This document shows, piece by piece, positions 10,394 through 43,567 of a stretch of 64,000 nucleotides of DNA. A model generated the notes under the pieces. That model was not told the DNA's origin and did not search any database. It saw nothing but the letters and a program-made list of their open reading frames with translations. A program made the translations under genes and the position numbers. Numbering within the stretch: position 1 is the first letter of the stretch; each line of letters opens with the position of its first letter. Source of the stretch: Escherichia phage vB_EcoM_ECO78. Where the stretch lies: the sequence record PP526941.1. One strand, written 5' to 3'.

Positions 10394-10409
10394 AGGGGCC
10401 GAAGCCCCT
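10394..10409 (-). terminator. rho-independent terminator downstream of hoc
   Basis: On the minus strand: AGGGGC-UUCG-GCCCCU followed by UUCUUCAUUUUG. Confidence 0.6.
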
Positions 10410-15914: not shown

Positions 15915-16311
15915 ATACCCTATTACTGGAAGCCAGTTGCAGTTTTATCTGCTCAATATCATCGGGGTTATCGATGACTGAAAAGCGTATTTCTACTATC
16001 AGAGTATAATCATCATAAACGGGTATCACATTAACTGATAATTTATCAATACGTGGCTCATAGTTTCTTACTGCGCTTTCGATGTTACGCTCAACCGTAT
16101 CAGCAGTAAGAGGAGTCATATTTTCAAAAAGCTGGTCTGATAAATCACATCCAAATTCAGGGTCAAACGGTCTTGAACCTTTTCTTGTTGTAATAATTCC
16201 CAAAAGACTGTTTTTAATTGACCTTAATCCAAGCGATCTGGAAACGTCTTTGTTCCAATCCATTTTCATTTCCGGGTCAATGTCAGAATAAAGCTTATTA
16301 ATATTTGACAT
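15913..16311 (-). CDS. 25: baseplate wedge protein gp25
   Basis: 132 aa; synteny; overlaps gene 26 stop. Confidence 0.88.
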   Translation of the reverse strand: MSNINKLYSDIDPEMKMDWNKDVSRSLGLRSIKNSLLGIITTRKGSRPFDPEFGCDLSDQLFENMTPLTADTVERNIESAVRNYEPRIDKLSVNVIPVYDDYTLIVEIRFSVIDNPDDIEQIKLQLASSNRV

Positions 16312-23607: not shown

Positions 23608-25664
23608 TACATTTTGAACTTTTTAGACATTCCGTTGATGTTAACCAAAGAAGCTAAGATTTGAGAAACTTCATTTTCCTCTTCTTTTGATTCTTCTACA
23701 AGGAATTGATTAAATCCAGCCATTGGACGAACTTCACCAGTTTCCATTAGATGGTCGCCATCATATACCGATTCCTCTAATTGTTCAGAAGGAGGAACGA
23801 TTGTACCTTCGATTAGATACTTGTTATAAGCAGTTTCTTTCATAAAGTACGTACTTACTTTATTAATCTTCAGTAAAATTCCACGTGGTAGAATAACTTC
23901 AGCTTCTGATGGAAATCCTGATAAATGACCTGGAACGATAACTTTGATTCGTTCAGCTCCTTTAATTACCATACCCACGCTAGTTTCAGCATCTTCATTA
24001 GCATATGTAGAATGACTACCCATATGCATCAAATCTTCTGCATCAACGGAACCTTCTCCTTCACCAGAAAATACTGCGCCGGAATCATCTAGAGCCATAT
24101 AGTTTTTACCATGCTCGCCGAAGATATTTGGTTTAAGTGATGTTGATACGAAGTTCTTGAAATAGAACATTTTATTTTCAATGTTATGACGCAAAGTTTT
24201 AAAGGTAACTTCTTGTCCGCGATAAAGCGTAGTTCCTGGAGGAAGAACTGATCCTTTGGCAAAGGCAGAATCAAGCGTCTCAATATGTTTAATAGCTCGT
24301 TCCATATATTCTTCACGGGTAGAATCTGGTTTACCCAAAAGGAACGAGTTCATTTCAACATATGAATCTGCACAATAATCTTCAATTACATCAGATTCAG
24401 CTTGAGTTAATCCTTTTGGAGTTACTTCAGTACTTGCATATTCATACGCCTGAGCGGCAGATTCATTAATCAATTTATAAATGCCATTCATTACAAATTG
24501 AATAATAGCTGTCTTTTCATCTGGCGTGGCTTTAGAACCTTTAACTAAATCATTAATAATTTTCTTAATAACATCAAAGCTATTAGAAATATTAATGTCA
24601 GCAAGATCGCTTAAAATTTTATCAGTTTTATAATCAAAGAATTCTTTATTCTTTAAATATTCTTGAGAACCTTGATATGTTATATCGCTCTGCAACTTGA
24701 TAGATGGATCACGTAAACGTGCATGGGCTAATGCAATATGATTTCGGAAGTTTTCTAGTTCATAATCGCTAGATTTAAAACGAGAAGCACTTCTCATACC
24801 ACCAATAGCTCCTTTGTTGAAGTTTGAACCAATCTGAATAACGCCAGAGTTCATCGGACCTTCTGCTTTATATACCGGAACCTTAGATTCAAACTCTTGA
24901 TATTTCTTAGCAGCGAAGCTATCACCCTGAAGTGAAGCATCAACAGTAGAATATTGAGCTTGTGCTGCTAATCGACGACTAATTTTAGTTTTCTGAATAA
25001 CAGCTTGATCAGTGCGCTTATCATTTTCTAAAGCAATAGAAGCAGCAACAGCGACAGCTTTAGGAACAGCATTACCTGTTTTAACGTCTACATAAACATC
25101 ACCAACCTTTGATTCAACTTTTGTGAATAACTCAGTTGAAATAGGAGGTACACCTGGAATGTCTTCTAAATTGGCATTTTTACGGTAAACCATAATATAT
25201 GCATACTTTTTATCATAGTCCCAGATTTCCTTTAAAAGAACATAACGACCTGCTCCTTTAGTACGTACTAAACGGTCAGCAATAACTTGCATTTGACGAG
25301 CTGCGCCATTTGTTTTACTTTTTAGTACGCGGAATAAGCATGCATCAATTTTATACTGTTTCATTGTTTGAAGAGCAGTATCAAAAACAGCATTAATGAC
25401 ACCAATTGGATTTCCACCCAAGTTTTTAAGCTTAACCAGCGATAGTTTCTCATTAACACCTATCATTACGATATGCATCATTTTATCGCCTGGCTTAACG
25501 TTTTTATTTGTATCACCGCCAGAGGTGTATGTACAAAATCTAAATCCAGGAAGCACGCTTTCTTCACCAGCTTGAATAGCAAAAATTTGAGGTATTTTAT
25601 GCTTAGGATTTAAGTTAACAACCGGCGCCGAAGCGCCGTCAAATAATTCTGTAATAAGTTCCAT
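23607..25664 (-). CDS. Alt-like ADP-ribosyltransferase, downstream paralogue
   Basis: 685 aa; N-terminus MELITELFDGASAPVVNLNPKHKIPQIF parallels the upstream Alt; C-terminal R-S-E ART signature (YRGQ...FVSTSL...SEAEVILPRG). Confidence 0.8.
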   Translation of the reverse strand: MELITELFDGASAPVVNLNPKHKIPQIFAIQAGEESVLPGFRFCTYTSGGDTNKNVKPGDKMMHIVMIGVNEKLSLVKLKNLGGNPIGVINAVFDTALQTMKQYKIDACLFRVLKSKTNGAARQMQVIADRLVRTKGAGRYVLLKEIWDYDKKYAYIMVYRKNANLEDIPGVPPISTELFTKVESKVGDVYVDVKTGNAVPKAVAVAASIALENDKRTDQAVIQKTKISRRLAAQAQYSTVDASLQGDSFAAKKYQEFESKVPVYKAEGPMNSGVIQIGSNFNKGAIGGMRSASRFKSSDYELENFRNHIALAHARLRDPSIKLQSDITYQGSQEYLKNKEFFDYKTDKILSDLADINISNSFDVIKKIINDLVKGSKATPDEKTAIIQFVMNGIYKLINESAAQAYEYASTEVTPKGLTQAESDVIEDYCADSYVEMNSFLLGKPDSTREEYMERAIKHIETLDSAFAKGSVLPPGTTLYRGQEVTFKTLRHNIENKMFYFKNFVSTSLKPNIFGEHGKNYMALDDSGAVFSGEGEGSVDAEDLMHMGSHSTYANEDAETSVGMVIKGAERIKVIVPGHLSGFPSEAEVILPRGILLKINKVSTYFMKETAYNKYLIEGTIVPPSEQLEESVYDGDHLMETGEVRPMAGFNQFLVEESKEEENEVSQILASLVNINGMSKKFKM

Positions 25665-31430: not shown

Positions 31431-31717
31431 TAGAACCTCATCTGAAAACCGTGCGATTTAACATTACCTCCGCCAATATCAGAAATATTAATTTCACGCG
31501 CAATTGAAGGGTCAATGTCAATTTCACGATTGAGTTTAGTGATAGCTAAAGTATCGCGCCCATTTACAGTACGGAACTCTAAAGGACAAACCACATCAAC
31601 GTAGTTTTTAATCGATTCGCTAGTAGGTTGCAAATGTGCAGGAAGGTCTTTAGGTGCCTTTGAGAAAACCACTTCACAGAAATTTTTGCGGGTATCAAAA
31701 TAAGTAGTCATAAACAT
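31430..31717 (-). CDS. hypothetical protein
   Basis: 95-aa ORF; GAGGAAAA SD after an upstream hairpin. Confidence 0.5.
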   Translation of the reverse strand: MFMTTYFDTRKNFCEVVFSKAPKDLPAHLQPTSESIKNYVDVVCPLEFRTVNGRDTLAITKLNREIDIDPSIAREINISDIGGGNVKSHGFQMRF

Positions 31718-31733
31718 AACATTTTCCTCAATA

Positions 31734-31747
31734 GGGGCCGAAGCCCC
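31734..31747 (-). terminator. GC hairpin (GGGGC-UUCG-GCCCC) between two 30.x ORFs
   Basis: Inverted repeat read in sequence; weak U tract. Confidence 0.4.
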
Positions 31748-31757
31748 TCATTTATTT

Positions 31758-32123
31758 TTAAATATCAAATTCGTTAAGAACTACATCAAAGACTGCTTCC
31801 AAGTGCTCAGGTTTAGCTTTGTTACTCAGAATATGACGAATCCAAGTTTTAACTAAGAGTTTACGATTAACACCATTCCAGCAAGGATGAGTCCCTAAAT
31901 CGCGTTGACGAAAATCATCATCCAAAGCGATTTTGAAGTTGGAACCTTCCATTGTGATTGAAACCGTGATGCCATTTTCAAATCGCATATAAACGTAGTT
32001 AGGAGTCATATACTGTTCAATTTCGCATACTGATCCATTTTGATGTTTCCAAAGGCAAATAGTATCAATAGAACCTGCAATACCATTAGAAACATATTTA
32101 CGTTCAAAGTTAATGTAGTTCAT
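31758..32123 (-). CDS. hypothetical protein
   Basis: 121-aa ORF. Confidence 0.55.
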   Translation of the reverse strand: MNYINFERKYVSNGIAGSIDTICLWKHQNGSVCEIEQYMTPNYVYMRFENGITVSITMEGSNFKIALDDDFRQRDLGTHPCWNGVNRKLLVKTWIRHILSNKAKPEHLEAVFDVVLNEFDI

Positions 32124-38457: not shown

Positions 38458-40045
<1,588 letters not shown>

Positions 40046-40053
40046 AATAAAAT

Positions 40054-40067
40054 GGGCCTTGCGGCCC
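40054..40067 (-). promoter_or_regulatory. stable hairpin (GGGCC-GCAA-GGCCC) between the AAGGAG SD and the denA AUG; also a possible nrdB terminator
   Basis: Minus strand reads UAAGGAG-U-GGGCCGCAAGGCCC-AUUUUAUU-AUG; the hairpin would shorten the SD-AUG spacing from 23 to about 9 nt. Confidence 0.45.
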
Positions 40068-40072
40068 ACTCC

Positions 40073-41251
40073 TTAAAAGTATTTTTTAAAACTCATCATA
40101 ACTTTATCATCAACATCATTATCAATCTGTGCAACAAGGTAAGATGACAGTTCTACTTCTTGTGGCGCGGATTGAACATTATCAGAATTAAGATATTCAC
40201 GAATCCAAGGATATGGATGTTTAACCGGAGCATCGGTAATTGGGCATGGAAGACCACACTGTTTCATACGAGATACAGTTAAGTAATCAATAAAGCTCCA
40301 CATGCTATTTGTATTTAATCCAGGAACATCGCCATCTTTAAATAAATGAACTGCCCAATCTTTTTCTTGACGGTTAACTTCCATGAAAATATCAACTGCT
40401 TCTTGTTCACACTCTTGGGCAATTTTAACCCATTCATCGCCATCAGTGCCAAGTTGAAGTTGACGAATAATATATTGGGTGCCCTTAAGGTGTAGTTGTT
40501 CATCGCGAGCAATGAACTTCATAATCTTGGCATTACCTTCCATGATTTCCATATTCTTGTGGAAGTTAAAGGTGCATGCGAAAGATACATAAAAACGAAT
40601 AGCTTCTAAGGCATTAATAACGTGCAAACAGAGGTAAAGAGATTTCATTAGCTCACGCTTCCAATATGTCTCATGCTCAATAGCATCTTCAATAATGTCT
40701 TCGTCTGCATTAATTTCTTTTTGGTATTCGATATCAGCTTTAGCGTTTTCCCAATAACGAGTTTTAATCAGAACATCATCATAATAACGTCCAATGGATT
40801 CAGCACGTTTCATAATAGCTTCATCTAATACAATTTCATCAAATACCTTCGATGGATCAGTATAAAGATTTCGCATGATATGAGTATATGAACGACTGTG
40901 AATAGTTTCACTAAAAGTCCATGTAGCAACCCATGTATCAAGACTTGGGTCTGAAATTAATGACATAAGTACGGCAGACGGCGCACGACCCTGAATGCTA
41001 TCCAAAAGTGATTGATACTTCAGGTTGTTAGTAAAAATATTTTGCTGGTACTGAGGAAGCTTATTAAACTGTGCAGCATCCATCATCAAGTTTACTTCTT
41101 CAGGACGCCAGAAAAATGACAATTGCTTTTCGGTTAAATCTTCAAAAACTTTATGGCGTTGAATATCATAACGCGCAATACCAAGACCTGAACCGAAGAA
41201 CATAGGTTCTTTTAAAACATCAACTGGATTTGTATTAAAAACTGTGCTCAT
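40073..41251 (-). CDS. nrdB: ribonucleotide reductase small subunit NrdB, uninterrupted
   Basis: 392 aa contiguous ORF; di-iron/tyrosyl-radical RNR beta family; synteny downstream of nrdA; no intron-sized interruption. Confidence 0.92.
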   Translation of the reverse strand: MSTVFNTNPVDVLKEPMFFGSGLGIARYDIQRHKVFEDLTEKQLSFFWRPEEVNLMMDAAQFNKLPQYQQNIFTNNLKYQSLLDSIQGRAPSAVLMSLISDPSLDTWVATWTFSETIHSRSYTHIMRNLYTDPSKVFDEIVLDEAIMKRAESIGRYYDDVLIKTRYWENAKADIEYQKEINADEDIIEDAIEHETYWKRELMKSLYLCLHVINALEAIRFYVSFACTFNFHKNMEIMEGNAKIMKFIARDEQLHLKGTQYIIRQLQLGTDGDEWVKIAQECEQEAVDIFMEVNRQEKDWAVHLFKDGDVPGLNTNSMWSFIDYLTVSRMKQCGLPCPITDAPVKHPYPWIREYLNSDNVQSAPQEVELSSYLVAQIDNDVDDKVMMSFKKYF

Positions 41252-41302
41252 AAATTTTCCGCTTAGTTAATAGATAGTGACTCGTCCATGAGTCAAATTA
41301 TA

Positions 41303-43567
41303 TCATAATTTACAGGATGAACAATCTTCAGCTTTTGGAGTTTCTATTTCATAATCATCAGTACCAGAACCGTCACGGGTATTATGATAATAGAAATTTT
41401 TTCCGCCAAAATACCAAAAATACAAAAGGTCATCAATCATTATTGACATTGGAACCTTTCCTTTTGGAAAAATCTGCGGGTCATAATATGTATTTGCTGA
41501 AGCTGATTGACATACCCATTTCAGCATAATAGCTACCTGTGTAAGATAAGGTTTATTGCCTTTCTTAGCTAATTTCCACGTATAATCATAGAGGTCTATG
41601 TTATGTTCAATATTGGGCACGACTTGATTAAAGGAGCCCTCTTTTGATTCTTTAACAGAGACTGGTCCACGTGGAGGCTCGATACCGTTTGTACTGTTAG
41701 AAACTTGGGAAGATGACTCACATGGCATAAGTGCTGATAATGTGCTATTACGGATGCCAAAGAGCTTAAGGTCTTCCCGCAGCGACGACCAGTCACAAAC
41801 GTATTTTGGAGCTGCGATTTGGTCAATCTTTTTATTGTACCAGTCGATAGGTAATTCGCCTCGAGACCAACGAGTGTCTGAATAATATTCGCAAGGTCCT
41901 TTTTCTTTGGCGAGCTTAATGGATGCTTTAATGAGTCCATACTGTAATCTCTCAAATAGTTCATGTGTTAAATCGTTAGCATCTTCATAAGAAGCAAAGT
42001 TACTTGCCAGCCAAGCTGCATAGTTAGTAACACCTACACCGAGGTTACGACGCTTTTTAGCTTTTTCTGCTTCAGGAACTGGATATCCTTGGTAATCCAA
42101 AAGATTATCAAGAGCACGAACTTGAACTTCTGCCAATTCATTAATTTTATCTTGGTCTTGCCAATCGAAGTTATCCAACACAAACGCAGATAACGTACAC
42201 AATCCAATTTCGGCATCAGGGCTATTCACATCATTTGTTGGAATAGCAATTTCACAGCACAAGTTACTCTGACGAATAGGTGCCTTTTCACGAATAAACG
42301 GAGTGTAGTTATTCGTATTATCAATGAACTGTACATAAATCCTTGCTGTTCCTGAACGTTCAGTCATGAGCAATTCAAACAGTTCACGGGCTTTAATACG
42401 CTTTTTACGAATATTAGGGTCTTTTTCTGCTGCTTCGTATAATTCGCGGAAACGGTCTTGGTCTTTAAAATAAGAATAATAAAGCTCGCCACCCATTTCA
42501 TGCGGACTGAACAAAGTAATGTAATCGTTCTTTCCAAAACGTTCCATCATCAAATCATTCAGCTGAACACCATAATCCATATGACGAATGCGGTTTTCTT
42601 CTACGCCTTTGTTATTTTTCAAAACGAGAAGATTTTCAACTTCCAAATGCCAAATAGGATAATAAGCAGTAGCAGCGCCGCCACGAATTCCACCCTGTGA
42701 ACATGATTTAACTGCGGTCTGAAAATGTTTCCAAAAAGGAATAACACCAGTATGGCGTACTTCACCCATGCCAATCTTAGAACCTTCGGCACGAATCATA
42801 CCAACGTTAATACCAATTCCAGCACGTTTGGAGATATATTCAACAATCGAAGCGGAAGCCTTATTGATAGACTTCAATGAATCACCTGCCTCAATAACAA
42901 CGCATGAACTAAACTGCCGAGTTGGAGTACGACAACCAGCCATAATAGGAGTTGGCAATGAAATCTGTCGAGTAGATACCGCTTCATAAAAACGGATAAC
43001 ATGTTTTAATCTATCAACAGGTTCATCTTGATGCAATGCCATTCCAATAGCCATAAATGCAAACTGCGGAGTTTCATAAATTTGACCAGTGGTTTTATCT
43101 TTAACTAAATATTTTTCTTTTAATTGCATCGCCCCGGAATAAGTAAATTCCATATCCCGCTCGTGCTTAATTTTTGATTCTAAAAATGTAATTTCTTCTG
43201 CTGAATATTTTGACAATAATTCAGGGTCATATTTACCTTCATTTACACAATAAGAAATATGGTCAATAAATGAACGTGGTTCATACTGCCCGTAAACATG
43301 TTTACGAAGAGCAAACATTAAACAGCGTGCAGCTACATATTGATAATCAGGTTCTTCAACCGAAATAGAATTCGCAGCGGCCTTAATGACAATAGTCTGA
43401 ATATCATCAGTTGTCATTCCATCACGGAGATAAGATTTAATGTTTTCATATAATTCATAAGGATCTACTGATGTTCCCTCAGCTGCCCAAGATAAAACTT
43501 TAATAATTTTTTGTGGGTCAAAGCTCTGAGAAACACCACTACTTTTGATAACATTAATTAATTGCAT
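41303..43567 (-). CDS. nrdA: ribonucleotide reductase large subunit NrdA
   Basis: 754 aa; N-terminal ATP-cone; class I RNR alpha. Confidence 0.95.
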   Translation of the reverse strand: MQLINVIKSSGVSQSFDPQKIIKVLSWAAEGTSVDPYELYENIKSYLRDGMTTDDIQTIVIKAAANSISVEEPDYQYVAARCLMFALRKHVYGQYEPRSFIDHISYCVNEGKYDPELLSKYSAEEITFLESKIKHERDMEFTYSGAMQLKEKYLVKDKTTGQIYETPQFAFMAIGMALHQDEPVDRLKHVIRFYEAVSTRQISLPTPIMAGCRTPTRQFSSCVVIEAGDSLKSINKASASIVEYISKRAGIGINVGMIRAEGSKIGMGEVRHTGVIPFWKHFQTAVKSCSQGGIRGGAATAYYPIWHLEVENLLVLKNNKGVEENRIRHMDYGVQLNDLMMERFGKNDYITLFSPHEMGGELYYSYFKDQDRFRELYEAAEKDPNIRKKRIKARELFELLMTERSGTARIYVQFIDNTNNYTPFIREKAPIRQSNLCCEIAIPTNDVNSPDAEIGLCTLSAFVLDNFDWQDQDKINELAEVQVRALDNLLDYQGYPVPEAEKAKKRRNLGVGVTNYAAWLASNFASYEDANDLTHELFERLQYGLIKASIKLAKEKGPCEYYSDTRWSRGELPIDWYNKKIDQIAAPKYVCDWSSLREDLKLFGIRNSTLSALMPCESSSQVSNSTNGIEPPRGPVSVKESKEGSFNQVVPNIEHNIDLYDYTWKLAKKGNKPYLTQVAIMLKWVCQSASANTYYDPQIFPKGKVPMSIMIDDLLYFWYFGGKNFYYHNTRDGSGTDDYEIETPKAEDCSSCKL

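Follow-up and report, generated by a model that had tools for sequence, protein, structure and literature searches.

How is translation of denA, the T4-type gene for the GIY-YIG nuclease endonuclease II (EndoII), started if its only usable Shine-Dalgarno (SD) sequence lies 23 nucleotides (nt) from the start codon? The question is raised by the nrdB-denA junction of Escherichia phage vB_EcoM_ECO78 (sequence record PP526941.1), of which we analysed one stretch of 64,000 nt, hereafter the window. In sequence, this region matches phage T6 at 98.8% identity and hundreds of Tequatrovirus genomes at about 98%, and the stretch from the SD to the AUG of denA has the same sequence in T4. A first-pass annotation had noticed a hairpin between these two elements and had proposed that it either shortens the distance between them, as in T4 genes 38 and 25, or doubles as an nrdB terminator. 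Comparison of this junction across phages leads us to consider it reasonably probable that the site is a split ribosome-binding site (RBS), that is, one with a structured spacer, of the gene 38/25 type.

Read 5' to 3' on the minus strand, the junction is ...UAC UUU UAA GGAG U GGGCC GCAA GGCCC AUUUUAUU AUG AAA GAA.... The AAGGAG overlapping the nrdB stop was indeed the only SD of use to denA, the sequence and the anti-SD duplex energies being in agreement on this point. From its last G to the AUG there are 23 nt, which become 9 nt once the 14-nt hairpin is removed, or an effective spacing of about 4-5 nt if an extended form of the stem is allowed. The 8-nt spacer that follows the hairpin has zero complementarity to the anti-SD (duplex +2.8 kcal/mol), and the sole other SD-like word, an AAGG formed by the loop and the 3' arm (-3.0 kcal/mol), is locked by pairing within the hairpin. 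The stem of five G-C base pairs (bp) with its GCAA loop lies exactly between the SD and the AUG, with the remaining spacing of about 9 nt, just as the first-pass annotation had described it. The nrdB stop is 4-5 nt from the stem and 27 nt from the denA AUG.

Predicted folding strongly favoured this hairpin. A 41-nt context folded with -16.4 kcal/mol (z = -3.9), and in a 91-nt context, whose centroid structure had -15.6 kcal/mol, the hairpin dominated the predicted ensemble. Each of the five G-C pairs had a probability of 0.999-1.0 in contexts of 131 and 251 nt, and the predicted stem continued past these 5 bp with a U-A (0.99), a G.U (0.96), an A-U (about 0.7) and another G.U pair (about 0.4). 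A larger minimum-free-energy structure, in which 3' codons of nrdB pair with the AUG region, was dropped, for its ensemble frequency was 0.03 and it was missing from the centroid. Perfect tetraloop stems of five G-C pairs occupy 4 places in the window (8 counts when both strands are included), whereas 30 dinucleotide-preserving shuffles averaged 0.2; such hairpins are thus a selected feature of the genome and not a product of chance. An Rfam search of positions 39000-41500 (E up to 1) returned no family at its gathering score, the sole match being L20_leader (22.3 bits versus a gathering score of 58.7, E = 0.24), a sub-threshold chance match.

Three more perfect hairpins with five G-C pairs, all of the C(UUCG)G kind, are found on the minus strand of the window, at 31717-31760, 10395-10408 and 25624-25637. 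The one at 10408 precedes UUUCUUCAUUUUG and looks like a classical terminator.

Homologous junctions were collected by querying with the denA product, which yielded 36 IMG/VR loci, to which we added the window, T4, RB69 and eight GenBank phages. These loci collapse to 23 distinct nrdB-denA junction types bearing a hairpin plus one type devoid of it. At least six Tevenvirinae genera contribute hairpin-bearing junctions, namely Tequatrovirus (here the window, T4, G4507 and fPS-2), Mosigvirus (RB69), Gelderlandvirus, Winklervirus, Karamvirus and Roskildevirus, and such junctions are also present in unclassified Klebsiella and Serratia phages. The order of stop and SD, hairpin, spacer and AUG is common to all 23 types. 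Nearly all have the nrdB UAA overlapping, or directly preceding, an AAGG(A/G); the stem, GC-rich with 4-7 Watson-Crick pairs, starts 1-5 nt past the nrdB stop; and the loop is UUCG in most types, GCAA or GUAA (GNRA) in the T4 type, and UUUG or CUUGA in one type each. A U-rich spacer of 6-10 nt connects the hairpin with the AUG in all homologues, and hairpin plus spacer add up to 22-24 nt in 21 of the 23 types. The last SD base is 22-27 nt from the AUG, and in 20 types the upstream SD forms a duplex of -3.4 to -8.1 kcal/mol. The distance between SD and AUG is thus conserved, and it equals that of the validated examples considered below.

The stem is conserved by compensatory change. On a MAFFT alignment that had not been fitted to any structure, 88% of the alignment cells of a 7-pair helix were paired and 27 cells were altered on both sides. 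Compensatory changes occurred at five of the seven pairs, with pair types such as GC/AU, GC/CG/AU and AU/GC/UA/CG; none of 500 shuffles matched the observed covariation score, and slid controls scored far lower. The stable loop classes, UUCG and GNRA, as well as the G.U pairs exist on the mRNA strand only, so the conserved object is an RNA hairpin in the nrdB-denA transcript. On the same grounds we ruled out a DNA-level palindrome or a protein-binding site. The predicted hairpin is thus highly probable, and evolution has preserved it as a structure of the mRNA.

Equally telling is where the SD does not occur. No SD follows the hairpin in any of the 23 types, the best duplex in the spacer being -0.1 kcal/mol. 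In contrast, at 31760-31717 of the window a very similar hairpin (31747-31734) stands in the usual order of stop, hairpin, GAGG, 8 nt and AUG. The single hairpin-less variant, L028 (1400-1504; IMG/VR UViG 2974786931), has lost the SD as well, and its nrdB TGA overlaps the denA ATG (UUAUGA); given that its nrdB C-terminal peptide is T4-like and the 5' end of its denA is of the type seen in L026, L028 may be a recombinant. That the SD never comes after the hairpin, and that both were lost together in L028, fits a functional unit composed of SD, hairpin and spacer. Krischvirus, Tulanevirus and Slopekvirus offered no further junctions because their denA does not adjoin nrdB. In Tulanevirus the denA ATG overlaps the stop of a different preceding gene, in Slopekvirus it lies 3 nt past such a stop, and in Krischvirus another gene precedes denA, with a hairpin and next a normal SD (GAGGAAAGGAUA-AUG) in between. 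The Krischvirus arrangement is exemplified by Escherichia phage E26 (L040, 320-400), where UAAUAAGGUG, the hairpin GGCGGGA-GAAA-UCCCGCC and UUUGUUG precede denA.

The T4 precedents invoked by the first-pass annotation are documented, and their geometry matches in the window and T4 sequences. For gene 38 and gene 25 alike, an SD too distant in the linear sequence is drawn into range by a hairpin folded between it and the AUG, which shortens the spacing from 22 to 5 nt (gene 38) or from 27 to 11 nt (gene 25); mutations that destabilise the intervening structure lower initiation, and the gene 25 arrangement has been confirmed with reporter fusions and dimethyl sulfate probing (Uzan and Miller, PMC3014915). 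The likeness to gene 38 is close. The T4 gene 37/38 junction, UAAGGAG-A-GGGGC UUCG GCCC-UUCUAAAU-AUG, shares with denA the UAA overlapping AAGGAG, the single nucleotide after it, a GC-rich, extra-stable hairpin with a tetraloop and with outer pairs that extend into the SD, and an 8-nt A/U spacer before the AUG; its linear spacing is 22 nt compared with 23 nt in denA. One denA junction type (UAAGGAGAGGGCCUUCGGGCCCUUCUGUUAUG) is nearly identical to the T4 gene 38 sequence. The two genes nevertheless differ in that gene 38 is late and denA prereplicative, in the loop (UUCG in gene 38, GCAA in denA of T4 and T6), and in the sequence after the stem, which is far from terminator-like in gene 38. Moreover, the gene 38 RBS has been tested by experiment, while that of denA is known from sequence comparison.

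Gene 25, at the gene 26/25 junction, has the same succession of SD, 1 nt, hairpin, 8 nt and AUG; in the window (AUG at 16311) it reads GAGG-C-CUCAAAG AGUU CUUUGAG-UUACUAUA-AUG, with 1 nt, an 18-nt hairpin and 8 nt. Its hairpin, rich in A and U, is weak (-6.4 to -7.4 kcal/mol) and forms within the coding sequence of gene 26; that of denA lies between genes, is rich in G and C and has far greater stability. Like the denA structure, it is a feature of a restricted group, being shared by T-even phages, whereas their distant relatives have lost it (Nivinskas 1999, Malys and Nivinskas 2009, both via PMC3014915). The review names only genes 38 and 25 as hairpin-bridged RBSs of T4 (PMC3014915).

We scanned for cases of the arrangement, requiring an SD word no more than 7 nt before a hairpin of at least 4 bp with at least three G-C pairs, and the hairpin to end 4-11 nt before an ATG or GTG that opens at least 40 codons. 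The scan, a heuristic, covered T4 from 1 to 100 kilobases (kb), 134 to 142 kb and 157.5 to 169 kb, in addition to the window, which corresponds to about 98-162 kb of T4. It matched gene 25, gene 38, denA and one weak site inside nrdC.6. Judged by this heuristic, the arrangement occurs in just one more T4 gene, denA. The nrdC.6 site, at T4 52539 on the minus strand (AAAGGAUAU-GACC UUUAU GGUC-GGCUA-AUG), has a weak hairpin and is probably a false positive. For T4 intercistronic regions, Tuerk and co-workers reportedly described extra-stable C(UUCG)G and GNRA tetraloop hairpins in 1988. Such hairpins are of the same stem-loop class as that of denA; the one at 31747 has the SD after it, and the one of denA has the SD before it.

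The denA junction thus combines an SD more than about 15 nt from the AUG, the lack of an SD at normal distance, a bridging hairpin and compensatory conservation, the features by which we recognise a split RBS. It is likely the third T4 example of a known but rare arrangement. The literature searched contained no description of a denA hairpin or split RBS, though it scarcely covered the classical T4 papers and a prior mention is possible. In the mechanism that we favour, the AAGGAG would be too far from the AUG to work on unfolded mRNA; the very stable tetraloop hairpin would fold between the two and loop out 14-22 nt; and the 30S subunit would then see the SD about 4-9 nt from the AUG and start denA translation. 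By analogy with genes 38 and 25, folding should be needed for efficient initiation. In T4 and T6, the hairpin with its UUUUAUU probably also serves as a leaky terminator or 3'-end stabiliser of nrdA-nrdB transcripts, which would keep denA mRNA below nrdB mRNA.

Several observations speak against a split RBS. The upstream SD is poor in three of the 23 types (-1.7 to -2.4 kcal/mol). In the longer form of the stem, weak outermost pairs take in the GAG of the SD, and folding could then hide the SD a little instead of aiding its use. Since the SD overlaps the nrdB stop, termination and reinitiation could deliver ribosomes to denA without any hairpin, and the layout of L028 indicates that coupling alone can suffice. 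In Krischvirus a normal SD follows the hairpin, which implies that a hairpin before denA has some function besides bridging an SD. Finally, two GenBank records carry a software-predicted terminator at the T4-type hairpin.

This last label, issued by pipelines of other groups, leads to an alternative in which the hairpin acts chiefly to terminate nrdA-nrdB transcripts in a Rho-independent manner and/or to shield them from 3' exonucleases, with the upstream SD a by-product of genome compaction and denA made at a low level from read-through RNA by whatever initiation is possible. We regard this as rather unlikely. The T4/T6 form, UGGGCC-GCAA-GGCCCA followed by UUUUAUU, is a GC-rich stem with a stable tetraloop directly before a U-tract. 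On a d'Aubenton-Carafa-type score computed with modern folding energies, which gives approximate values, its 6-bp stem version reached +25 compared with +14 for the classical-looking hairpin at 10408. The 3' part of nrdB contained no promoter-like motif for denA; denA would thus depend on read-through, and any terminator here would have to be leaky. A precedent exists in the same T4 gene cluster, where the mapped mobE terminator, which resembles the denA hairpin in its GC stem, loop of 4 nt and short U-tract, stops 30-50% of transcripts (PMC2790892). Nolan et al. 2006, in their TransTerm table, give a terminator directly before denA for RB49 (131015-131032), of the Krischvirus type, and none at nrdB-denA for RB69. 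Our scores ranged from -43 to +23 among the homologues, with clearly negative values for RB69 (-43) and the L019, L021 and L033 types, despite the hairpin, the SD position and the spacing being kept there. Thus RB69 retains SD, hairpin, 8 nt and AUG with the tail ACUUUAUU, and L033 and L034 have the tails GUAAAGCU and AUAAAGCU; the hairpins of genes 38 and 25 scored -52 and -43. A terminator scan of the window did not call the denA hairpin, probably because the scan extends the stem via G.U pairs into the U-tract. The denA hairpin also differs from T4 Rho-independent terminators in the proximity of a stop, 4-5 nt from the stem, and of the next AUG, 8 nt past it. A terminator leaves unexplained why no lineage has the SD after the hairpin, the layout found elsewhere in the genome, and one merely lying before a gene would predict neither an SD that is always upstream nor the joint loss in L028. 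Because terminator-likeness is not conserved, as RB69 illustrates, the split RBS is the better-conserved role. The suggestion that the hairpin doubles as an nrdB terminator therefore holds up as plausible for the T4/T6 sequence and falls short as a family-wide property; partial termination or 3'-end protection of nrdA-nrdB transcripts is probably an extra, lineage-specific function in T4 and T6.

Two further alternatives concern how, or where, denA translation starts. Were denA translated mainly by ribosomes that had just terminated at the nrdB UAA, the hairpin would be neutral or modulating. The overlap of this stop with the SD, 27 nt from the AUG, suits such coupling, as do the distant genera in which denA overlaps the stop of its preceding gene in ATGA fashion and the TGA-ATG overlap of L028, where neither SD nor hairpin exists. 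However, coupling needs neither a covarying hairpin nor a conserved distance of 22-24 nt, and a stable hairpin between stop and AUG would be expected to hinder a sliding ribosome. We thus judge coupling rather improbable as the main route, although it may contribute. Still another view follows the T4 record AF158101.6, in which denA (137517..137951) has 144 codons from a GTG equivalent to window position 40069; the reading frame is open from this GTG, and the hairpin would then be coding sequence. This we find scarcely credible. An in-frame upstream ATG or GTG is present in just three of the 23 junction types and is missing or out of frame elsewhere, and the eight extra codons vary in the manner of a stem-loop and not of a peptide. 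The GTG overlaps the last base of the SD, leaving a spacing of zero. RB69 and, T4 apart, all other annotated genomes that we examined have denA annotated from the AUG. Crystallised EndoII (PDB 2WSH) begins with MHHHHHH followed by MKEIAT..., and a protein of 136 residues is consistent with the E118 numbering of the Carlson laboratory. The GTG start was accordingly rejected on conservation and SD spacing. The AUG at 40045, which the first-pass annotation had taken as the start, is conserved in the comparison; denA starts there and encodes 136 amino acids, and the 144-amino-acid version of the T4 reference is probably wrong.

Returning to the split RBS, its position suggests a more elaborate scheme. 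In all lineages the nrdB stop is only 1-5 nt from the stem, so that a terminating ribosome must melt or occlude the hairpin. A two-stage, ribosome-gated switch can be envisaged on this basis, in which a ribosome close behind RNA polymerase would cover the 5' arm while at the UAA and block the terminator hairpin, such that, in the T4/T6 type, read-through into denA would occur only under active nrdB translation; once the ribosome had left, the hairpin would form again in the RNA extending into denA and so create the split RBS. We put this forward as a speculation that is quite improbable. The hairpin might also bear on RegB. Strong RegB sites conform to the consensus GG*AGRAYARAA, and structure protects from cleavage (PMC3014915). 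We considered denA as a RegB target and rejected the idea, the denA context (GGAGUGGGCCG and then the helix, with GGAG before UGGGCC) being a misfit to the consensus and the GGAG not being kept in other genera. A hairpin in place of the usual A-rich spacer may also make the denA GGAG resistant to RegB, unlike those of other early T4 genes.

Coordinates of the junction and of the genes around it, which are ordered nrdA, nrdB, denA and rnlA on the minus strand, are collected in the table. The region at 41251-41310 (minus strand) differs from T4 in that nrdB has no intron and mobE is missing between nrdA and nrdB; an extended -10-like sequence, TGATATAAT, overlaps the nrdA stop at 41305 (minus strand). 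Downstream, the minus-strand interval between the denA stop and rnlA (39610-39636) has an AUGCUU directly after the stop, resembling a MotA box, and after that a small hairpin, CCACA-UGGAG-UGUGG, exposing GGAG in its loop; the rnlA SD, AAGAGGA, and its AUG at 39581 come next. The AUGCUU and the hairpin may provide rnlA with a middle promoter, with a site of RegB-type cleavage or of processing, or with both. In T4 omics data (tables S2 and S4 of PMC9697503), denA RNA is classed as 'middle' and the neighbouring nrdB and rnlA as 'early', kinetic classes that are compatible with a discontinuity at the junction and too coarse to show termination. A search for transcript 3' ends mapped to the junction found none.

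Table. Features of the nrdB-denA junction and flanking genes in the window
Feature	Coordinates	Strand	Basis or remark
nrdB stop UAA	40073..40075	minus	Its AA are the first two SD bases
SD AAGGAG for denA	40069..40074	minus	Anti-SD duplex -8.0 to -8.7 kcal/mol
Single U between SD and stem	40068	minus	Sequence
Core hairpin GGGCC-GCAA-GGCCC, GNRA tetraloop on mRNA strand	40054..40067	minus	Pair probabilities ~1.0, covariation
5' arm GGGCC	40067-40063	minus	
Loop GCAA	40062-40059	minus	
3' arm GGCCC	40058-40054	minus	
Extended hairpin with weak outer pairs	40050..40072	minus	Overlaps SD GAG and first U residues of the tail
U-rich 8-nt spacer AUUUUAUU	40046..40053	minus	Hairpin-to-AUG spacer, possible terminator U-tract
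denA AUG	40045-40043	minus	Opens 136-codon reading frame ending at 39635
In-frame GTG, denA start of the T4 record	40067..40069	minus	Judged not to be the start
nrdA	43567-41303	minus	Open reading frame
nrdB	41251-40073	minus	Open reading frame; intron-free here
denA (EndoII, GIY-YIG)	39635..40045	minus	136 codons plus stop, from AUG 40045

Two practical points ensue for phage annotation. According to our comparison, the denA start in the T4 reference should read AUG (136 amino acids) and not GTG (144 amino acids), and the automatic 'terminator' labels placed here in many phage records miss a likely translational role. Hairpin-bridged RBSs have been textbook curiosities known from very few genes. 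A third case, if true, would make them a recurrent, selected design of T-even phages and not an oddity, and the denA hairpin is conserved with covarying pairs across at least six genera. The 23 variants together with one natural deletion constitute a natural test set for how the 30S subunit accommodates a structured spacer. In denA, this design would serve a prereplicative gene for a toxic, host-DNA-degrading nuclease that is needed in small amounts.

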